Positions 6,710-18,795 are shown, counted from the first letter of the stretch. The stretch: DNA of 64,000 nucleotides from Candidatus Altimarinota bacterium (GCA_963664295.1 OY760935.1:256001-320000), one strand, 5' to 3'. The notes: a model not told the origin generated them from the letters alone. A program made the numbers and translations.

Positions 6710-7798
6710 GTGAAAAATTCAAGTCATTTCGTGGCTCAAAATCAAGAAAAAACCACCAAAGCAGGTGTTTTTTTGGCAAAAAGAATTTTAGGACGACCAG
6801 AATGGGCAAAAACAGTGTTATTAAAAGGGGATTTAGGAGCAGGAAAAACAACTTTTGTTCGTGGTTTTGCTGAAGGTCTTTCAAAAAAAATAACAGCAAA
6901 AAGTCCCAGTTTTACAATAATCGCAGAACATAATTTTACATTCGAAGCAGAGGAGTGGACTTTAGTCCATGTTGACCTTTATCGCTTGGGTAATAATTAT
7001 GATTCGGAAATATATAATTATCTTGAAGAAAAAATAAAAGAAAAAAATAAAATTGTAGTTATTGAATGGGCAGAAAACTTAATCAAAGAATTTGAATTAC
7101 CAAAAAATAGGATTGAAATTAGCTTTGAGCACGGAAAAAATGAAAATGAGCGCATAATAAAGCCAATATTTTTTGACCCAGGCGTACCAAGCTTGGAGCA
7201 AGTGGAGCAACTTTCCAATGAATTTCACACTCCTTTTCATGTGCGCAATCACGAAAAAGGAGTAGAAAAAGTAGCCAGCCAGTTTGCCAAAAATTTTCTA
7301 AAAAATGGAGTTATTGTGGATTTAAATTTAATAAAAACAGCCTCTTTGTTGCACGATTTGGTAAGAATTGTGAATTTTAAAGAAATTATTTTTGATGATT
7401 TTTGCGAGGAAGAGAAAATAACAGATGAAAAAATTTGTTTTTGGAATAATATTCGAGAAAGCCACGGGCACATGCATCATGGTGAAGCCGCAAGTGAGAT
7501 TTTGCGTGAACGAGGTTTTATTTCCTGTGCTGATGTAGTTGAAAGGCATAAGTCCAGGGCTATTTTTGAAGAACTTCGCACATTTGAGGAAAAAATTGTT
7601 TATTTAGCAGACAAAAAAGTGCTTCATGACAAAATTGTCACCATAGCCCAAAGGCTGGAAGACGGCAGAGTGCGCCACAATCTCAAAAACGAGGAATTGC
7701 AAAAAAAATTGGAAAAAGGGATTACTAATCTTCGTGATGAACTTTTGGCTCTTGCAGGTTTTGCGAATGAAGAGGACTTTGATAAAGAATTGATTTAA
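6710..7798 (+). CDS. tsaE: t6A biosynthesis ATPase TsaE fused to a C-terminal HD domain
   Basis: GDLGAGKTTFVRG, KSPSFTI, HVDLYRL, VIEWAE (TsaE); then HVRNH..LLHDL..HH..H..LADK (HD). Confidence 0.88.
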   Translation: MKNSSHFVAQNQEKTTKAGVFLAKRILGRPEWAKTVLLKGDLGAGKTTFVRGFAEGLSKKITAKSPSFTIIAEHNFTFEAEEWTLVHVDLYRLGNNYDSEIYNYLEEKIKEKNKIVVIEWAENLIKEFELPKNRIEISFEHGKNENERIIKPIFFDPGVPSLEQVEQLSNEFHTPFHVRNHEKGVEKVASQFAKNFLKNGVIVDLNLIKTASLLHDLVRIVNFKEIIFDDFCEEEKITDEKICFWNNIRESHGHMHHGEAASEILRERGFISCADVVERHKSRAIFEELRTFEEKIVYLADKKVLHDKIVTIAQRLEDGRVRHNLKNEELQKKLEKGITNLRDELLALAGFANEEDFDKELI

Positions 7799-7811: not shown

Positions 7812-8213
7812 AGATTTGCAGTCCGATAATGACAAGTTTTTTCGTCATTCCAAGGAGTTCGTCAAAGGTGAACGACGCAATCTATTTTCTGTCATCCTGA
7901 GCGAGCCTTTAGGCGAAGCGAAGGATCTCCCGTAGTCATTGTTGTTTAAATTACCGAGGCAGTATCCCTAGTTCAGTCATTCTGAACTCGATTCAGAATC
8001 TCCCAGTGCCATTACTACACAATTACCCAAGTTATAATTTGAGCAAATGTCCAAGGAGATTCTTTGCTTCTTCTTCTTTTCTTTTTCTTCGCTAAAGTTA
8101 CGAAGGATTCGCTCAGAATGACAGGAGGGAAATACTTAAGGTAGGACTTGAGCAAATGGCAAAGGAGATTGCGGATCAAGTCCGCAATGACAGATAAAAA
8201 AGCTCAGAATGAC
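7812..8213. repeat. array of GTCAT/ATGAC-tagged palindromic (REP-like) repeats
   Basis: gtcatcctgagcgagcctttaggcgaagcgaaggatctc, gtcattctgaactcgattcagaatctc and gagattgcggatcaagtccgcaatgac; the same family of units recurs at five other loci. Confidence 0.9.
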
Positions 8214-8303
8214 AGCGAGTAATCGACTAACTTTCTTAGGAGTGATAGAGTGAAATTTACTTATTTACCTTAAATTAAGATAAAAACACAAAAAATACAT
8301 AAG

Positions 8304-8337
8304 AAAAAAACCCAGATTCACGTTATGTGTCTCTGGG
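8304..8337 (-). terminator. intrinsic terminator
   Basis: Minus strand cccaga-gacacataacgtgaa-tctggg followed by a T7 tract. Confidence 0.65.
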
Positions 8338-8452
8338 CCAATTGTGGATCGATCGAGTCTATTACCTTGCAGGTATATTCTCTTTATCGTTCAATGCCTT
8401 TTCAGGCGTTGAAGATTTGCAAGTTGATAAACCAAGCAATCCACAATTGGCC
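8336..8452 (-). ncRNA. candidate structured RNA (unclassified)
   Basis: 16-bp closing stem ggccaattgtggattg/cgatccacaattggcc enclosing hairpins ttcaacgcct-GAAA-aggcattgaa and tacc-tgcaa-ggta; lies between the orphan stop codon and a terminator. Confidence 0.5.
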
Positions 8453-8484
8453 TGAGTTAGGCGGTCGGTTGTCAAAGAAAAAAA

Positions 8485-8958
8485 TTAGTTCTTGAATGCG
8501 ACGGTTCTTTTGAAAACAATTCCGCCGCACTTTTTTGTATTGTTGTGTACGATGGACATGGACATGGTCATATCCGTATCATTCCTGAGCAGTATAATGA
8601 AATATTCTGCGATTTTGTAGCCTCCGTCATCAAATCTGATGTGGTAGGTAGACGGCACTGTTATCTCCTCTCCGGGCGGAGCAAAAACCTTTATCTTTTT
8701 CATGTCGTTGTCCAAGATTCCTTTTTCAATCTTGCGACATTCCTGCCCAACGCCTTTTTTGTTCGTTACGTGGGGCATTACTGACACGGTTGTGCCTTCC
8801 GGCAGAAATTCCACAGCCCTCTTAGATAAGAGAGCAAGCGCTTCTTCCGCATTCAGCGTTGTGTTGGCGGCGCTGGTGGTGGTGGTGGTGACGGCGCTGA
8901 TGCCGATGATAACGACAAAAAAGATTGCCTTGAGAATTGCGATTGTGTTGTGTTTCAT
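8485..8958 (-). CDS. secreted hypothetical protein (GC-richer orphan)
   Basis: 157 aa with a signal-peptide-like N-terminus; strong SD AAGGAGGAG before the ATG; visibly higher GC than the flanks. Confidence 0.8.
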   Translation of the reverse strand: MKHNTIAILKAIFFVVIIGISAVTTTTTSAANTTLNAEEALALLSKRAVEFLPEGTTVSVMPHVTNKKGVGQECRKIEKGILDNDMKKIKVFAPPGEEITVPSTYHIRFDDGGYKIAEYFIILLRNDTDMTMSMSIVHNNTKKCGGIVFKRTVAFKN

Positions 8959-9089
8959 AGTGCTCCTCCTTGGTGAGTTGGGTTGTTGCGCGTAATTGCG
9001 CGGGTTGTGTTGTAAAGATGTTGTTTTTTCCTTTGACCACCAATTGAAACTCTAATTTTAAAATTCCAATTTGGTGATCAAAACCGATG

Positions 9090-9143
9090 TTGTCAAAGAA
9101 CAGGTTGATGCAATTTAACATCTTTTTTTATATTTGTCAAGAG
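9090..9143 (-). promoter_or_regulatory. sigma70 promoter plus boxA-like site
   Basis: TTGACA (9140-9135), 17 nt, TAAATT with extended-10 TG, then TGTTCTTTGACA (9102-9091); near-identical to 13677-13729. Confidence 0.75.
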
Positions 9144-9153
9144 AAAAAAACTT

Positions 9154-9757
9154 CGTTATCCTGAGCGAGCCTTTAGGCGAAACGAAGGATCTCCCGTTGT
9201 CATTACTGTTGAATTACCTAAGGCAGGATTTGAGCGCATGGACAAGGAGATTGCGGGTCGTAGCCCGCAATGACAGCCCAAAAAGTCCGCAATGACAAAT
9301 ATGATGTCATCCTGAGTTTAATTCAGGATCTCCCGTTGTCATTACTACACAATCACCCATGGCAGGACTTGAGCACATGGACAGGGAGATTGCGGATCAA
9401 GTCCGCAATGACAAATATGATGTCATCCTGAATTTAATTCAGGATCTCCCGCAGTCATTGTTGTTGAATTACTTAAGACAGGACTTGAGCAAATGGACAA
9501 GGAGATTGCGGATCAAGTCCGCAATGACAAGACAGGACTTGAGCAAATGGACAAGGAGATTCTTCGCTCCATTTCATTCCGCTTAGAATGACAGCAAGGG
9601 TGTATTTACGCTCAGAATGACACCTCTTGCCTCCCGAGATTGCGGGTCAAGCCCACAATGATACCCCAAAAAGCCCACAATGACACCTCCCTAAAAAGCC
9701 CGCAATGACAAAATGGATTGCCACGCCCTTCGCCCTTGGCGTTGTCCTCAGAGTGAC
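9154..9757. repeat. array of REP-like palindromic repeats
   Basis: Multiple gtcatcctg...ggatctc and gagattgcgg...ccgcaatgac units with a conserved linker. Confidence 0.9.
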
Positions 9758-9784
9758 GAATATTCTTAGATATAAAACAACAAT

Positions 9785-10468
9785 TTAATCACCATTTTGT
9801 TTTACCTCTTTGCTGATTTCTTTTTGAAAACTGTAAACGCCTAGTATTAAAAAGGCAAAAACAGCACCAAAAAGAATAAAAAACAAATTAAAAAGAAAAT
9901 TAAGATAAATTTTACCAATTTCAGCATAGGACCCTTTTCCTAAGAGAATTCCAAAAAAACTAACAAAAGGCACAAGAGAAACAGCAATAGCAACACCAAC
10001 AAGATGTCCAACTCCAGTATCTTTTAACCATGAATACACACTAGCAAAGCCAGAAACAAAAGCAGTAATAAAAAACAAATCGTAATAAGAAGCGAATTTT
10101 TCGAAAAAATAATCTGTATTAATTTCAAAGCCTGCAAAAATCAAGGCTTTAATCAATAAAGCAGAGACCAAAATAACAAAAAAAATACTTCCAAAAAGAC
10201 TTTTGCTCGAATAAATCATTAAATCTTTGTTGCGAGCAGAAATGCCCGCCGCAAAAGCAAGAACAGGATTAAGCAAAGGAGCAAGCACCATTGCGGCGAT
10301 CAAAATAGCAGTATCATTTAAAATAATTCCCAAAGTAGCCAATATTGCAGACAATCCACACATTACAAAGAAATTAAGCTTTAATTTTGACTCTTCTATT
10401 AAGTTAGCAATAGCATTTTCCATTGTTTTTGCCTCGTGAAAATGTTTTATGATCCTTTTAATAATCAT
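9785..10468 (-). CDS. DUF389 (TIGR00341-type) membrane protein
   Basis: LSAILATLGIILNDTAILIAAMVLAPLLNP and LVGVAIAVSLVP motifs; multi-TM. Confidence 0.85.
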   Translation of the reverse strand: MIIKRIIKHFHEAKTMENAIANLIEESKLKLNFFVMCGLSAILATLGIILNDTAILIAAMVLAPLLNPVLAFAAGISARNKDLMIYSSKSLFGSIFFVILVSALLIKALIFAGFEINTDYFFEKFASYYDLFFITAFVSGFASVYSWLKDTGVGHLVGVAIAVSLVPFVSFFGILLGKGSYAEIGKIYLNFLFNLFFILFGAVFAFLILGVYSFQKEISKEVKQNGD

Positions 10469-10722
10469 TATTTTTTATAAATCATATAATTATAATATAA
10501 AACAGACTTAATCACAAGGTCGTCATGCTTATAAATTTAACAACTTTATTTTTTTCAAAAAAATCAAGTCCGACCCATTCGAGCTTCTTTTTGGCTACAA
10601 AAAAAAATATAAAAATTCTAAATGTTGATTAAAATATATTGCATATATGAAAAACAGATCAGCAAAAGCTTATATTGCAACTTGGCAAAAGTATGCTTTT
10701 GTGTATAATAAATAAGCTAAAA

Positions 10723-12339
10723 ATGAAAAAATTTGAAAAACACCTAAAAAAGGCCTTACCAATAATAAAAAAAGTAATAAAAAATACAGCTTTACCGCTA
10801 TTATTGCTCATTTTTGTATGGTTTTTTTATATCAATAATTCACAAATAAAAATAAATCTAAAAAAAATTGACAATTTAACAGGCTCAGTTAATGCATTAG
10901 TGGAAGAAAATCATCAATTGCGTTTATTTGCCTTTGAGTTATGCACTAGTAGTAATATGCTGGGAGATTATTTGTTTTCAGAAGAATATAATTGCGCGCA
11001 GTTTTTTCCACAAATTGCAGAAGAGCAAGAGGTAAATGTCTCTTTGGAAAGCCAGTTTATATCATTTGTGAACACTTTTTTTGTTCAAGGGCAGGTTGAA
11101 GAACAAGCAGAAAATCCAGAAGAAATAGACGTAGAAACCAACGAAGAAAATGAAGTTTTAATCAATAATATAATTAGCGTAAGCAAAAGTGCTGATTTTT
11201 CCTCTAGCTTAAGCGCAAATCTTGCAGAACAAAGAAAAGCAGATATGCAAGCCATTGTGCAAAATGACAAAATAGCCCTTTATCTTGCTGATTTTGGTCT
11301 TCATCTTGAGCAGGAAAATGAAAACTTACTTAAATTAAAAAAAGAGGAAGAGATTTTAGCTGATATTTATTGGGATCAAGATTCTCTTGATGTAAAAGTT
11401 AATGACCTGACCAGACAGGCAATAATTTCTCTTGGTACTTTTAATTTGGTAAACAAAAAAGCCCAATATATTACAGAAAAATACAGCACATTTGATTTGG
11501 AAGCATTTTTGCAAAGTGTTGATAAGCTTGAAAAACACAATGCTTCTCTGGAGAATTATCTTATCTTAGGTCGTCATGGGGCTAATTTAGATACTATGAT
11601 TTTAGCTTCTGTTGATTTTAAAAAACAAAGAATTACCTTAGTTTCTATTCCTCGTGATTTATGGCTTAATTCACGCAAATTAAATTCATATCATGCTATT
11701 TATGGCATGCCGGTATTTAAACAAAAAATTGAAGAAATTACAGGGCAAAAAATAAAACATTATGTTCTTATTGATATGATGGCTTTTGTTGAGGTTGTTG
11801 ATATTTTGGGCGGTATTGATTATGAGTTTACAGAGCCTTTAATAGATCCATCTTATAGAACAGTGGATAATGGCATTGAAGGCACTCTTTATTTTGCAAA
11901 AGGTGAACATCATTTAAACGGCACTCAAGCCTTAAGAGTTGCAAGAACTCGCCATACTTCTAGTGATTTTGCTAGGGCAGGGAGACAGCAAGAAATATTA
12001 AAAGCAATAAAAAGCAAAATAGACGAAGAGGGGAAAGCAAAGTCTTTTATCAATATGCTTCCGATTTTGATGGAAAAAGTAGAAACAGATTTTGCGCTTC
12101 ATGAGTTAATTCCTTTAGTTATGAAGTCTAAAGATTTTGAGCTTAGAACAGGAAAAGTAATGTCCACTTCAAATATTTTGGTTTCGGAAATGATTGAGGT
12201 GACTCCTGTGACTGTTAGTGTTGAGCCTGTTGCTGAGGGCGAGGAACAGCCTGTTATGAAAGCTTATGCTCTTAAACCTCGTGATGACGATTGGGCATTG
12301 ATTGCTAAGTTTATTTTGAGTGCGATTTATTCTGACTAG
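10723..12339 (+). CDS. LCP (LytR-CpsA-Psr) family protein
   Basis: DTMILA..LVSIPRDLW..KLNS..GGID..LNGTQAL..ARTRH.SDFARAGRQQ; N-terminal TM; start placed at ATG 10723, after a TATAAT. Confidence 0.92.
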   Translation: MKKFEKHLKKALPIIKKVIKNTALPLLLLIFVWFFYINNSQIKINLKKIDNLTGSVNALVEENHQLRLFAFELCTSSNMLGDYLFSEEYNCAQFFPQIAEEQEVNVSLESQFISFVNTFFVQGQVEEQAENPEEIDVETNEENEVLINNIISVSKSADFSSSLSANLAEQRKADMQAIVQNDKIALYLADFGLHLEQENENLLKLKKEEEILADIYWDQDSLDVKVNDLTRQAIISLGTFNLVNKKAQYITEKYSTFDLEAFLQSVDKLEKHNASLENYLILGRHGANLDTMILASVDFKKQRITLVSIPRDLWLNSRKLNSYHAIYGMPVFKQKIEEITGQKIKHYVLIDMMAFVEVVDILGGIDYEFTEPLIDPSYRTVDNGIEGTLYFAKGEHHLNGTQALRVARTRHTSSDFARAGRQQEILKAIKSKIDEEGKAKSFINMLPILMEKVETDFALHELIPLVMKSKDFELRTGKVMSTSNILVSEMIEVTPVTVSVEPVAEGEEQPVMKAYALKPRDDDWALIAKFILSAIYSD

Positions 12340-12365
12340 GTATAGGTAGTTGGTAAGAAATAGTG

Positions 12366-13590
12366 TGTCATCCTGAGCGAGCCTGTGCTCTGTCATCCTG
12401 AGCGAGCCTTTAGGCGAAGCGAAGGATCTCCCGTTGTCATTACTGCACAATTACCTAAGGCAGGATTTGAGCACATGGACAAGGAGATTCTTCACTCCAT
12501 TTCACTCCGCTCAGAATGACAGCAAGGGTGTGTTTTTCGCTCAGAATGACACCTCTCGAGATTGCGGGTCAAGCCCGCAATGACAATCCAAAAAGTCCGC
12601 AATGACACCTCTCGAGATTGCGGGTCAAGCCCGCAATGACAATCCAAAAAGTCCGCAATGACATGATTCTCTGGATTATCGGATCAAGTCCGATAATGAC
12701 AAAAAAAGAGGCAGGTTCCTCGCAATGACAAATATGATGTCATCCTGAGTGAGCCTTTAGGCGAAGCGAAGGATCTCCCGTTGTCATTACTGCACAATTA
12801 CCTAAGGCAGGATTTGAGCAAATGGACAAGGAGATTGCGGGTCAAGCCCGCAATGACAATCCAAAAAGTCCGCAATGACATGATTCTCTGGATTATCGGA
12901 TCAAGTCCGATAATGACAAAAAAAGAGGCAGGTTCCTCGCAATGACAAATATGATGTCATCCTGAGTGAGCCTTTAGGCGAAGCGAAGGATCTCCCGTTG
13001 TCATTACTGCACAATTACCTAAGGCAGGATTTGAGCAAATGGACAAGGAGATTGCGGGTCAAGCCCGCAATGACAATCCAAAAAGTCCGCAATGACATGA
13101 TTCTCTGGATTATCGGATCAAGTCCGATAATGACAAAAAAAGAGGCAGGTTCCTCGCAATGACAAATATGATGTCATCCTGAGTGAGCCTTTAGGCGAAG
13201 CGAAGGATCTCCCGTTGTCATTACTGCACAATTACCTAAGGCAGGATTTGAGCAAATGGACAAGGAGATTGCGGGTCAAGCCCGCAATGACAATCCAAAA
13301 AGTCCGCAATGACATGATTCTCTGGATTATCGGATCAAGTCCGATAATGACAAAAAAAGAGGCAGGTTCCTCGCAATGACAAATATGATGTCATCCTGAG
13401 CGAGCCTTTAGGCGAAGCGAAGGATCTCCCGTAGTCATTACTGCACAATTACCTAAGGCAGGATTTGAGCAAATGGACAAGGAGATTCTTCGCTCCATTT
13501 CACTCCGCTCAGAATGACAGCAAGGCTGTTTTTTCTGCTCAGAATGACACCTCCTGCCTCCCGAGATTGCGGGTCAAGCCCGCAATGATA
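12366..13590. repeat. large REP-like array containing four tandem 217-bp units
   Basis: gagatt anchor at 12614, 12831, 13048, 13265 and 13482 (period 217); also a 56-bp duplication at 12558/12614. Confidence 0.95.
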
Positions 13591-13676
13591 ACCTTAGCGT
13601 AAAGCCTTTTTCTCTGTACAAAAAATTTGTTCATAAATCCATAAAACAATATGAAGACCTGATTTTTATAAATTAA

Positions 13677-13729
13677 CTCTTGACAAATATAAAAAAAGAT
13701 GTATAATAAATCAACCTGTTCTTTAACAA
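13677..13729 (+). promoter_or_regulatory. sigma70 promoter plus boxA-like site
   Basis: TTGACA (13680-85), 16 nt, TATAAT (13702-07), then TGTTCTTTAACA (13717-28), one mismatch from the rrn boxA TGCTCTTTAACA. Confidence 0.8.
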
Positions 13730-13731
13730 TT

Positions 13732-13829
13732 CGTTTAAACAAAGAGTGGATTGCCTGCTTTCAAAAAAAACACCACGCTCTAGCGTGAGTGCTTTCACGC
13801 AAAGTAAGCAATCCATCTCTTTGCAAACG
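13732..13829 (+). ncRNA. candidate structured 5' leader RNA
   Basis: Stem cgttt..caaagag-tggattgc / gcaatcca-t-ctctttg..aaacg; internal alternative hairpins cacgc/gcgtg and gcgtga/tcacgc. Confidence 0.5.
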
Positions 13830-13990
13830 CGGTTTTCATTTTTTTACTAACTGGATTTAGTCAGCTTTCCCGCCATTATTCTGCGTTTTTTTCCTCGTTG
13901 TATTTTACCCATTTCCCCATTGACGGAACCACACATTAACTTAGATTGCACGACCCACAGAGGCGTGCGCATCCAAAAAGGAGATTTACC

Positions 13991-15001
13991 ATGAGCAAAT
14001 TCACCAAGTTTTTCGTTTTTATCGTTTTGTTGCTTGCTACATGCAACCTTGCGCAAGCGCACTTTCCCTACAAAAGGTTCGATGGCTTTAGGCTTCAAGC
14101 CTTTGGTTATTGGGAGGCCCGGAAAATCCCTAAAAGGATTGAAAGGCTGTCGCTGGTGTCCTTGGCGGACAGGCCCGCCATAGAAATGACTTTTCTGTCA
14201 TTTCATGACAAAGTGGCCATGTTGGCATATGACCCAAACGCCAACCTTTCCACAAAGAACGCAAGGGCGTTGGCCTCTTTCCATGGCCACACATTAACCC
14301 TTGATTTGCATGATCCGGCAACTGAGGTTGCTAGGAAAATTGCGAAGTTCAAGGGCGATTGTTTGGAGTTGGACTTTTATGACAACCCGAGCGTTGAGGC
14401 TGCCAAGGCATTCGCAACTTTTAAGGGCGAGATGTTGGAGGCGAAGTTTAGGGAGAAGCCGACCATTGAGGTTCTTAAGGCACTGTTCAGCTTTGGCGGC
14501 AAGACGCTGAAAGTTAGGATCCCTAATAATCTGCAGTCTGACATTGCATCTGCCATTGCTGCTTTTGGCGGCAATGAGCTGAAGGTTGTCTGCGGTAAAC
14601 TGACCGTTGAGGCCCTTAAGGCGTTGTCCGGCTTTGGCGGCAGTTCACTTTCTGTCACGGAGCACAGTGCGGAGCATCAGCTTACAGCCCTGCACGGAGA
14701 AGAGATTGCTGCTTTCAATGGCGATCATCTGAAGCTCAGGTTGCGCAAACAGCCTGACGAAGACTTTTTTAAGGCTTTGACCAAGAGTTTTTGCGGGCTT
14801 ACAATTGACGCCGAAATCTTGGATTGTAATCGGCCGATTGACCTCAATAACTTTGTTGTCAACGGAGGACCAGCAGTGAGTCTCAAGCTTTATCAGACCA
14901 CTGAGGAGCCTTTGGAAATCATTCCGCCGACAGAATTGTATGATAGGAATAAAATTTCAGTTACGATCAACTACGCCTACCAGGGCGTTCCGTTTCCGTA
15001 G
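13991..15001 (+). CDS. secreted protein with ~24-aa LRR-like solenoid repeats (GC-richer orphan)
   Basis: SD AAAGGAGA before ATG 13991; signal peptide ending AQA; repeats A.ALA.F.G..L.L....P..E. One counted 60-nt line is 52% GC, versus 27% in a counted purA line. Confidence 0.8.
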   Translation: MSKFTKFFVFIVLLLATCNLAQAHFPYKRFDGFRLQAFGYWEARKIPKRIERLSLVSLADRPAIEMTFLSFHDKVAMLAYDPNANLSTKNARALASFHGHTLTLDLHDPATEVARKIAKFKGDCLELDFYDNPSVEAAKAFATFKGEMLEAKFREKPTIEVLKALFSFGGKTLKVRIPNNLQSDIASAIAAFGGNELKVVCGKLTVEALKALSGFGGSSLSVTEHSAEHQLTALHGEEIAAFNGDHLKLRLRKQPDEDFFKALTKSFCGLTIDAEILDCNRPIDLNNFVVNGGPAVSLKLYQTTEEPLEIIPPTELYDRNKISVTINYAYQGVPFP

Positions 15002-15030
15002 GTATACATTTGCAAAGAGATGGAATTACG

Positions 15031-15067
15031 GCACGGGGCGGTTTATCCGCCCCTGCTAGTTTTTTTA
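15031..15067 (+). terminator. intrinsic terminator
   Basis: ggggcgg-tttat-ccgcccc stem followed by a T tract. Confidence 0.75.
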
Positions 15068-18324: not shown

Positions 18325-18425
18325 TTAAAAATCTTGATTAAAAATAAGTTTTCATAGAAAATATAGTTCGTGATTTTAATGATTTTGATTAGCCGTTGCA
18401 CCTAATCAGAAAGAAAACAAAGTGC

Positions 18426-18726
18426 AACAGACCACGGAGAGATGGCAGAGTGGTCGCCAATATAAACAGAGGGCTTGAAAACTAGTAAAAAAATTGGATA
18501 AAAAATTACCTAATTTTATCATAAATGTATCGTTGCATACGCAATGATACAAATAACACAAACAGACCACGGAGAGATGGCAGAGTGGTCGCCAATATAA
18601 ACAGAGGGCTTGAAAACTAGTAAAAAAATTGGATAAAAAATTACCTAATTTTATCATAAATGTATCGTTGCATACGCAATGATACAAATAACACAAACAG
18701 ACCACGGAGAGATGGCAGAGTGGTCG
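18426..18726 (+). repeat. 135-bp tandem repeat (2.2 copies) carrying the tRNA-Ser 5' end
   Basis: aacagaccacggagagatggcagagtggtcg at 18426, 18561 and 18696; the two full units are identical. Confidence 0.95.
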
Positions 18727-18795
18727 AATGCAACGGTCTTGAAAACCGTCGTGGCAGCAATGTCACCGTGGGTTCGAATCCCACTCTCTCCGCCA
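18706..18795 (+). tRNA. tRNA-Ser(UGA)
   Basis: Acceptor stem GGAGAGA/TCTCTCC, anticodon arm acggt-cTTGAaa-accgt, long variable arm, GGTTCGAATCC, encoded G-CCA. Confidence 0.97.

Follow-up and report, generated by a model that had tools for sequence, protein, structure and literature searches.

A window of 64,000 nucleotides from Candidatus Altimarinota bacterium (GCA_963664295.1, OY760935.1:256001-320000), which is the whole stretch of DNA analyzed here, contains two orphan genes enclosed by signals reminiscent of an rRNA operon. Why would a protein-coding gene be built in this manner, and whose ribosomes read it? The genome is a 1.2-Mb CPR genome with genetic code 11, and the source organism is an ultra-small and likely host-dependent bacterium. 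The two cassettes, A and B, had been described in an earlier note on this DNA, and both were found where that note had placed them. They belong to a set of eight in the genome (A to H). In each, a promoter and a boxA-like motif are followed by a long leader hairpin, a strong Shine-Dalgarno sequence (SD), an orphan ORF, a trailer, and a terminator.

Cassette A lies on the minus strand. Its sigma-70-type promoter (9112 to 9140; TTGACA-17-TAAATT, 9140-9112, with a TG extension) is followed by the boxA-like motif TGTTCTTTGACA (9091 to 9102) and by a leader hairpin (about 9024 to 9085) whose 3' arm (9046-9024) is the partner of the trailer. The SD, AAGGAGGAG (8963 to 8971), has a pairing energy of −11.4 kcal/mol against a canonical 16S tail and of −6.4 kcal/mol against the organism's own tail. 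The ORF (8485 to 8958) encodes 157 amino acids with an N-terminus that resembles a signal peptide by eye, and has a GC3 of 0.58. It is followed by the trailer (8465 to 8484), complementary to the leader 3' arm, and by a structured 3' region with an intrinsic-terminator-like hairpin and U-run (8304 to 8460; hairpin and U-run at about 8337-8304).

Cassette B lies on the plus strand. Its promoter (TTGACA-16-TATAAT, 13680 to 13707) agrees with the consensus at 12/12 positions and is 94% alike to that of cassette A over 31 nt. The boxA-like motif TGTTCTTTAACA (13717 to 13728) precedes a leader hairpin (about 13737 to 13830) that is homologous to the leaders of cassettes C, D, and E, with two-sided change at 9 of 29 pairs. 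An SD, AAAGGAG (13977 to 13983; −8.7 kcal/mol with the canonical tail, −4.2 kcal/mol with its own), leads an ORF of 336 amino acids (13991 to 15001; GC3 of 0.57) with a signal-peptide-like N-terminus and an LRR-like alpha/beta repeat solenoid. The trailer (15009 to 15024) is a perfect 16-nt complement of 13812-13827, and an intrinsic-terminator-like hairpin (15035-15053) with a U-run closes the unit (15029 to 15067).

Both leaders fold better than all 200 of their shuffles (z of −4.5 for A and −6.4 for B), and both ORFs are, as claimed in the earlier note, richer in GC (0.46 and 0.49) than the genome (0.335). Two further traits listed there were rejected as parts of the cassette. The small GC hairpin before the SD is present at both loci (8988 to 9001, minus strand; 13947 to 13971, plus strand), but it is not a defining part of A and does not rise above shuffles at B (z of −1.4). 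Likewise, a REP-like array is found no more than about 100 nt away from three of the eight cassettes, but the other five are 5 to 54 kb from the nearest of the genome's 30, and adjacency does not define the cassettes. Integrons and REP/RAYT-mobilised cassettes are not matched either: the units show neither a conserved recombination site nor obligatory REP flanks, and they bring their own promoters.

The trailers proved to be specific to their own leaders. At the base of the leader 3' arm, trailer B forms a perfect 16-nt Watson-Crick match and trailer A a match of 20 nt that includes G-U pairs and one mismatch (p = 0.001 for each, 1000 shuffles), and each ranks first among the 948 gene trailers of the genome. 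This corroborates the complementarity after the stop codon that had been reported for both loci. Swapped arm-trailer pairs do not fit, with scores of 12 and 15 versus 37 and 38 for the own pairs, so that the pairing sequences are indeed locus-specific while the architecture is kept. A looser duplex-energy test gave 0/1000 equally good shuffles for A and 7/1000 for B. Of two measures of complementarity, one or both reach significance (p < 0.05) in seven of the eight cassettes, cassette G being the exception (p = 0.5). Folding of the whole transcript places the trailer on the leader in 2/8 full-length RNAs; after removal of the first 55 nt, it does so over 12 or more nt in 5/8, and never in B and E.

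The company that the promoter and boxA keep elsewhere in the genome was explored in a separate scan. Nine intergenic matches were obtained, of which five belong to cassettes, two to RNase P RNA and tmRNA, and two precede nothing; an ordinary gene followed none of the nine. The 16S gene and one further RNA likewise have a promoter and boxA, and the 16S gene also has a matching trailer. The cassettes themselves enclose ORFs; a tRNA was all that Rfam found in the window, and six other cassette loci gave no credible match.

In the account of rRNA operons given in PMC10250234, the leader boxA is engaged with NusB, NusE, NusA, and NusG, and a leader-trailer helix is cut by RNase III. The cassettes share the promoter-proximal boxA-like motif, the leader helix, and the long-range pairing around the product, and the genome holds genes for NusB and RNase III as well as for a VirB4-like ATPase. 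They differ in that the product is an SD-led ORF, that the partner of the trailer is first locked in a local hairpin, and that the match spans 9 to 20 nt rather than over 30 bp. Moreover, Rho was found in none of the five genomes tested, leaving no Rho to guard against. The likeness to rrn operons drawn in the earlier note thus holds for the motif and the pairing but not for antitermination against Rho. Rho protection was therefore rejected as the role of boxA, and a role in RNA folding is more likely.

The cassette pattern was found in 81 of 301 genomes of the class. Among 51 relatives' loci with hairpin and SD, a perfect trailer match of at least 8 nt to the 3' arm occurs at 16, compared with 2/51 for the 5' arm, 3/427 for windows inside ORFs, and 52/2506 for cross-locus pairs. 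At the remaining 35, the surroundings of the first stop contain no such match; a trailer search over a wider range gave 3 versus 3 in its control. Outside the class, 1 of 14 loci has a match. Complementarity at other promoter-boxA loci is thus above background, and the dedicated class of rrn-styled cassettes that had been proposed is upheld by eight copies here, many more in the class, and the controls passed. The ORFs of the relatives exceed their neighbors in GC3 in 40 of 49 cases (up to 0.89 versus 0.25). A search with 45 proteins of relatives gave few families.

The start signals bear on which ribosomes read these messages. With the canonical tail, SD energies are −5.6 to −11.6 kcal/mol in all eight cassettes; a value of −4.5 kcal/mol is reached by 13 of 450 genes, cassette genes included, versus 39 in a control window. 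The single 16S of the genome ends GGACCACCCCTTAA, without CCUCC, its tail reading CCCC. This tail still pairs with the cassette SDs at −2.9 to −6.6 kcal/mol, which counts against translation by a host. As an argument for the whole class, loss of the anti-SD was rejected: the 16S end could be read in 19 of 51 class genomes (not in the other 32), and 14 of these 19 keep CCUCC.

Codon usage also sets the cassettes apart. Their ORFs span 104 to 382 amino acids, and the six of at least 150 codons have the six highest GC3 values among 822 ORFs (0.50 to 0.58; next, 0.39; mean, 0.22). The ORFs of B, D, and E are paralogues with 27 to 33% identity and GC3 of 0.50 to 0.57, whereas an ordinary 1071-amino-acid gene with the same repeat has 0.19. 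This paralogy, together with the homologous, compensated leaders, indicates that the family diversified inside cassettes. All eight cassette ORFs fold better than their synonymous shuffles (z of −2.0 to −5.5); among 30 ordinary genes, only 2 have a z of −2 or lower.

Since the source genome uses code 11, a test by genetic code rests on relatives that read UGA as glycine. In one such family (f13), 15 of 18 boxA-led first ORFs contain no TGA, versus 4 of 49 other ORFs, and TGA occupies 4 of 421 glycine positions versus 417 of 1240; most of these loci have short A-rich leaders with neither hairpin nor trailer, and their membership is assumed from promoter and boxA. Of the 15 ORFs without TGA, five come from a single genus, are closely homologous, and have neighbors also low in TGA. 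In a second family (f23), a loosened promoter pattern did not beat its control, and 20 promoter-like places were picked from it by hand. In f23, 13 of 15 boxA-led genes, S-layer-like or pilin-like and some behind long hairpins, use TGA freely. Consequently, boxA and hairpin also serve genes that the organism necessarily translates itself. The S-layer-like genes of this family have lowered TGA use (3/86 to 22/76), which indicates that strong expression alone cuts TGA use.

These observations speak for a rival explanation in which the cassettes are translated at home. Through boxA, hairpin, and trailer, the message would be folded and persist for long, and it would encode surface proteins that are abundant or tied to a certain stage. 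The SD would be read through a partial or conditional anti-SD, and high GC3 and the lack of UGA would reflect selection on RNA folding and efficient decoding. The over-folded ORFs, the anti-SD kept by many relatives, and the organism's own Lgt and LspA agree with it; the presence of these two genes also led us to reject lipoprotein signals as a marker of the host. However, the S-layer-like genes are the reverse of the cassettes, lacking an SD and having GC3 of 0.05 to 0.10, and the canonical AGGAG is left unexplained where the genome's tail has CCCC, so that we consider self-translation unlikely, if still worth weighing.

Two further findings are left unexplained by self-translation. The first concerns one protein family present in 7 of 401 class genomes, all from UGA=Gly families, plus one further such locus. 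It has no TGA among roughly 425 glycine codons, even at GC3 of 0.12, where the adjoining gene writes 29 of its 34 glycine codons as TGA. Three copies end at TGA, and the next TAA or TAG lies past the hairpin and U-run of the terminator, so that the organism's own code would leave the message without a stop; a proper protein would be possible only in a code-11 cell. A prfB match over the cut-off is absent in two of these three genomes, and one of the three (G516) has no release-factor match at all. Another member has TGA 19 codons before TAA; a homologue has Trp at this position, and both codes are compatible with that. In PMC10746230, phages compatible with code 11 are predicted for Gracilibacteria and Absconditabacteria, which similarly ties genes without in-frame TGA to UGA=Gly organisms, and the prophages of these hosts are reported as TGA-dense. 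Unlike the phages as described there, which have back-up stops, ours are single chromosomal genes behind host-lineage boxA promoters, three of them without a usable stop before the terminator. The second finding is that C-terminal tails for type IX secretion lie directly behind cassette-type promoters in three genomes (G187, G246, and G107); self-translation does not account for such tails in cells without an outer membrane, and BamA was found in none of five genomes tested.

The mismatches of SD and anti-SD, codon usage, and genetic code are, like the anatomy and the pairing potential, features of the sequences themselves. Together with the type IX tails, these mismatches make translation in another cell the leading reading, where the earlier note had named export as one option: judged from sequence, it is somewhat probable that the epibiont makes the cassette mRNAs and that its host translates them, as mRNA effectors. 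The wider proposal that Patescibacteria of this class deliver end-closed, rRNA-style mRNAs into hosts for protein making, probably via a relaxase-less type IV system, falls a little short of probable.

Could the foreign traits simply have come with foreign genes? Acquired accessory units, similar to phage morons, would keep the SD, GC, and genetic code of the donor; a CPR-type promoter and leader would be added or co-acquired, and the trailer match would be a by-product of assembly or a plain stabilizer. Most donors have a higher GC than CPR and employ both SD and code 11, and the GC3 shift, SD, missing TGA, TGA stops, and type IX tails would all follow from transfer. The TGA-free family occurs commonly in Bacteroidota. 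On its tree (FastTree, 47 of 126 rows), the entries into the class form about three groups, and since the tree is unrooted, we claim no direction of donation. As with morons, the units have their own promoter, their own terminator, and a foreign base composition; they are specific to their genome and occupy intergenic slots that vary, with three units beside REP arrays. Nevertheless, the neighbors are housekeeping genes and no phage context was found; PHROG matched none of eight proteins out of nine and gave a weak signal-peptide match for the ninth. Protein collections yielded no close relatives of A, B, and H, leaving no recent donor in view, and for A no relative at all. The lineage-type promoter, boxA, and leader-matched trailer are also unlike morons, and the trailers fit their own leader family only. 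Moreover, the cassettes have long diverged with no amelioration of SD or code: paralogues only 30% identical keep GC3 above 0.5, and the CPR copies of the TGA-free family, distant both from one another and from all named homologues, have gained no TGA even at GC3 of 0.12 to 0.21. They have instead an SD (6/8) and a boxA-like motif (6/8) that are mostly missing from 75 non-CPR homologue loci (SD in 3, promoter plus boxA in 1). Acquisition is thus, in our judgment, quite unlikely.

Under translation by the host, the epibiont polymerase would transcribe the unit with NusB and NusE on boxA, as for the 16S, RNase P, and tmRNA genes, and the leader hairpin would form first and shield the 5' end. Once the trailer is made, RNase III would probably open the hairpin and the 3' arm would re-pair with the trailer, giving a compact, well-folded mRNA closed like pre-rRNA by a leader-trailer helix. 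Metastable 5' hairpins that give way to 5'-3' long-distance pairing are known from the type I toxin mRNAs hok/sok and AapA1, and the exchange of partners proposed here is alike. There, however, the pairing hides the SD of a toxin of 30 to 50 amino acids under antisense RNA control, whereas the paired arm of the cassettes lies upstream of the SD in seven of eight (A to E, G, and H; that of F abuts it) and their ORFs are not under 60 amino acids. The epibiont's own ribosomes would mostly pass the message by. We know of no route by which mRNA passes between bacterial species. A candidate is a relaxase-less VirB4-type system, type IV systems without relaxase being described as widespread in Patescibacteria (PMC12102498). 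Host ribosomes would then read the SD and host-style codons, and the host's Sec, lipoprotein, or type IX pathways would sort the protein into the host envelope for attachment, nutrient release, or competitor exclusion.

The unit might also travel as DNA, to be transcribed and translated in the host, with hairpin and trailer acting there or serving as signals in single-strand DNA. Many hosts would be able to use consensus promoters and boxA, type IV systems are known DNA movers, and the evidence from SD, codons, and code applies equally. We nonetheless hold this to be very improbable: reading the loci revealed no border sequence shared by the eight units, the leader-trailer pairing uses G-U, relaxases are described as rare in Patescibacteria (PMC12102498), and contigs from two of three runs (one sample, probably the source sample) span cassette A unbroken, with no excision joint. 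Furthermore, TTGACA/TATAAT promoters, which the Bacteroidota polymerase is not known to use, are present even at loci that have Bacteroidota-type starts and type IX tails. Agrobacterium T-DNA and the cross-kingdom passage of mRNA between plants and parasites share with the cassettes the principle of one organism's genes written in another's expression grammar. The cassettes would act from bacterium to bacterium, probably as RNA and not as integrated DNA, and unlike T-DNA they are dispersed single genes, probably with neither borders nor relaxase.

If host translation holds, no earlier case of mRNA effectors between bacteria would precede these, and bacteria would interact in a way that is new. 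A single explanation would then cover a class of odd orphan genes, genes led by an SD where the genome otherwise has none, and genes in the standard code within UGA=Gly genomes. It would bear on the manipulation of hosts by Patescibacteria, which make up a large part of bacterial diversity, and on the cargo of relaxase-less type IV systems, as these are treated in PMC12102498, PMC11452946, and PMC8080830. A full-text literature search, covering few subscription papers and main texts rather than supplements, found no description of such cassettes or of host-translated CPR mRNA; even under the alternatives, a protein-coding use of boxA and leader-trailer design was not found there either.

The host might moreover be predicted from the parasite genome by SD style (SD or A-rich start), codon usage (GC3), genetic code, and sorting tails. 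No Pfam match over the cut-off was obtained for seven of the eight cassette proteins, H having FG-GAP repeats. A single-sequence structure model of B is an alpha/beta solenoid (pLDDT of 65) with no Foldseek match at E ≤ 0.001. In Atlas, B was linked at 0.90, but with low recognition, to repeat clusters of Planctomycetota, and A to nothing; we therefore claim no host taxon. The cassettes of the source genome would point to an SD-using host of roughly 48 to 50% GC. The 3' region of cassette A resembles that of cassette F in sequence, and the ORFs of the two are unrelated.

Cassettes A (minus strand) and B (plus strand) of the studied genome, G000, have the layout and positions first described: promoter, boxA-like motif, long leader hairpin, strong SD, orphan ORF, hairpin-complementary trailer and terminator. 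Both leader hairpins gave better folds than all 200 shuffles. The distal 30 nt of the hairpin 3' arm, with hairpin ends set by eye, were compared with the 50 nt around the stop codon. Trailer B showed a perfect 16-nt match to its own 3' arm and trailer A a 20-nt match including G-U pairs, each with p = 0.001 and rank 1 among 948 gene ends. The arms and trailers of A and B do not cross-fit, which bears out the claim of the earlier note that the pairing sequences are locus-specific.

The scan for further copies that the earlier note had proposed brought the number of cassettes in G000 to eight, drawn from a promoter-plus-boxA scan, a list based on boxA alone and a survey of SD and third-codon-position GC (GC3). 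Their ORFs start at genome positions 264958 (A), 269991 (B), 333044 (C), 618823 (D), 573876 (E), 364233 (F), 169828 (G) and 88779 (H). Trailer complementarity, for which that note had also proposed a shuffle-controlled test, reached p < 0.05 in seven of the eight under one or both of two measures, the trailer test having failed for cassette G. A looser energy test of the pairing was weaker, with four of the eight below 5%. Since the partner of the trailer is the arm that also forms the leader hairpin, the two helices are mutually exclusive; upon in silico deletion of the first 55 nt, the trailer moves onto the arm in 5/8 cassettes.

Cassettes B, C, D and E share one leader family, with two-sided changes in 9 of 29 pairs. 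A and F have a second leader in common and resemble each other in the 3' region, their ORFs being unrelated, which indicates that ORFs have been exchanged within a kept RNA frame. Adjacency to REP-like arrays did not hold up as a shared trait, given that only three of the eight cassettes adjoin one. The genome has 30 such arrays; those in the window lie at 7820-8230, 9150-9750 and 12360-13600 and include a near-perfect 217-nt tandem unit. Away from these, small ORFs at genome positions 622841, 482966 and 483287 presumably encode GIY-YIG-like nucleases. A 20,427-nt contig from the probable source sample, at 4-8x higher depth, has two short AT-rich stretches, 17 kb apart, in common with cassette A (window 8470-8487, in the trailer, and 9121-9147, in the promoter); this overlap is probably due to chance.

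G000 is a single contig (C1) of 1,215,430 bases with a GC content of 33.5% and single, unlinked 16S and 23S genes; the window covers C1:256001-320000. The genome follows code 11 and carries prfB, and its class includes families in which UGA encodes glycine. Together with genome size and the unlinked rRNA genes, this last trait suggests an affiliation with the Gracilibacteria/Peregrinibacteria-type Patescibacteria. NusB, RNase III and a VirB4-like ATPase were all found, and Rho was not found in the genome search. The nusB gene immediately precedes the one for RNase III (C1:206117-206904, minus strand).

The other boxA-like promoters of G000 precede 16S, RNase P RNA, tmRNA and one unknown conserved RNA, and our scans of this genome found none before an ordinary gene. 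One promoter-plus-boxA scan had a narrower promoter rule and did not pick up cassettes C, F and G, the 16S gene or the unknown RNA. This structured RNA of ~420 nt (C1:779149-778720, minus strand; locus L001, alignment A1) has no ORF and is closed by a terminal stem. Kept in 7/7 family and 4/12 order genomes, it has a core helix CTCCCTAC/GTAGGGAG and A-rich AAACAAAAAC spacers. Rfam gave no match, and RNase P and tmRNA were rejected as identities because both are located elsewhere in G000. It is a candidate new large noncoding RNA, and may belong to the system that includes the cassettes.

The cassette genes are written in another dialect than the rest of G000. The six cassette ORFs of at least 150 codons are the top six of 822 ORFs in GC3 (0.50-0.58; next 0.39; mean 0.22), and cassettes C and F have GC3 of 0.44 and 0.31. 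ORFs B, D and E encode repeat proteins that are 27-33% identical, with high GC3 in all three, versus 0.19 in an ordinary 1071-aa gene with the same repeat. Better folds than those of synonymous shuffles were seen in all eight cassette ORFs versus 2/30 ordinary genes. No close relatives of proteins A, B and H were found in protein collections.

All eight cassettes have an SD. Ordinary gene starts are A/T-rich, and an SD energy of -4.5 kcal/mol is reached by 13 of 450 clear-start genes, cassettes included, versus 39 in the control window. With every cassette SD, the 16S tail of G000, GGACCACCCCTTAA, pairs 1.4-5 kcal/mol worse than a canonical tail. The anti-SD (C1:568674-568660, minus strand) was compared with those of G002 and G005, and has changed differently across three genera of the family (CACCCCTT, CACTTCCT and CACTTCCA), which suggests that it is no longer under selection there. 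Each of the three readable family members has an altered anti-SD, and 14/19 class genomes have an intact one. Some of the Parcubacteria are reported to have lost the anti-SD (PMC9297842). In G000, otherwise without SD, a RiPP-like peptide ORF of 22 codons with a perfect SD (GAAAGGAGGTGA) lies just upstream of a radical-SAM-like gene (C1:47895-47830, minus strand).

The cassette pattern was detected in 81/301 genomes of the class. The class analysis, which left out three listed places, covered 111 hits in 80 genomes. Among the 108 hits other than rRNA and RNase P, a hairpin of at least 18 pairs was seen in 78; an SD-led ORF follows it in 52 loci, with the stop within reach in 51. A perfect trailer match of at least 8 nt was found in 16/51, against 2/51 for the 5' arm, 3/427 for in-ORF windows and 52/2506 for cross-locus pairs; the remaining 35 loci had no such match. 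GC3 exceeds that of the neighbours in 40/49 loci, and an SD precedes 16/131 neighbouring genes (6/29 in genomes with an intact anti-SD). The rest-of-phylum search, whose analysis took in 48 of the places listed, gave the promoter-boxA-SD-GC3 pattern in 53/251 genomes (50 from other classes), with raised GC3 in 13/14; the trailer match does not recur there (1/14). The cassette is real, class-wide and apparently undescribed, full-text literature searches having found no description of it. Acquisition of foreign genes without amelioration accounts for each dialect trait taken singly; it fails to explain their persistence through deep divergence and the leader-matched trailers, and we hold it to be quite unlikely.

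The cassette works like the rrn leader-trailer unit but lacks an rRNA product; its likeness to type I toxin mRNA switches, morons and T-DNA is only partial. BoxA and the rrn leader-trailer helix are described in PMC10250234, with support noted for a role of boxA tethering in helix formation. The leading explanation, towards which the sequence evidence inclines us slightly, is that cassette mRNAs are translated by the host. In the simplest single account, the epibiont would transcribe the units in the manner of its stable RNAs, and the mRNAs would be closed end to end and handed over; host ribosomes, together with the export pathways of the host, would then produce envelope proteins from them. 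A type IV secretion system without relaxase, widespread in Patescibacteria according to PMC12102498, is a candidate route of entry. Transfer of the cassettes to the host as DNA seems highly improbable.

The UGA=Gly relatives bear on whether the epibiont translates these mRNAs itself. In family f13, counting ORFs with at least 10 glycine positions, 15/18 boxA-led first ORFs have no TGA, with TGA at 4/421 glycine positions over the whole set, against 4/49 TGA-free ORFs among the others, with TGA at 417/1240. Most of the f13 boxA-led genes have short A-rich leaders of the Bacteroidota kind, without the long hairpin; Bacteroidota ribosomes ignore the SD (PMC7797042). In family f23, only 2/15 boxA-led genes are TGA-free; the others, S-layer-like and pilin-like, use TGA, have GC3 of 0.05-0.21 and lack an SD. 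These counter-examples favor self-translation, which we nonetheless consider unlikely. The f23 S-layer-like genes at L215-L220 and L231 (1100-1260 aa) have boxA and a conserved long hairpin leader; the S-layer-like leaders share the motif GGGTTAAGGCTTTAAC, and TGA use is low but non-zero. In G188, a genome of a UGA=Gly family, an ORF judged by eye to be chemoreceptor-like (L184) stands behind a boxA promoter with a perfect SD and has no TGA in 25 glycine positions.

A family of 570-640 aa proteins common in Bacteroidota was found in 7/401 class genomes, each from a UGA=Gly family, with an eighth copy at L294, a locus titled Ca. Gracilibacteria. The eight copies have no TGA in roughly 425 glycine codons, and their GC3 (0.12-0.73) is above that of pooled neighbours at most loci. 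They form three groups in the tree, far from named homologues, and carry SD and boxA-like motifs that are mostly absent in 75 non-CPR homologue loci. L242, L243 and L244 terminate in a TGA at the point where their homologues stop, the next TAA or TAG lying 52, 14 and 22 codons on, respectively, beyond a hairpin plus U-run. No prfB match over the cut-off was found in G147 and G140, and no release-factor match of any kind in G516. L239 is ambiguous, with a TGA at a Trp position 19 codons before its TAA. Type IX secretion tails occur behind the boxA-type promoter in G187 (with full hairpin and SD), G246 and G107; such tails are known to work only in Bacteroidota-related diderms. BamA was found in none of the five genomes searched.

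Elsewhere in the window, TsaE is fused to an HD domain (6710-7798), and a tRNA-Ser is preceded by a duplicated stretch of ~135 nt, seen as repeated translation (18406-18795).
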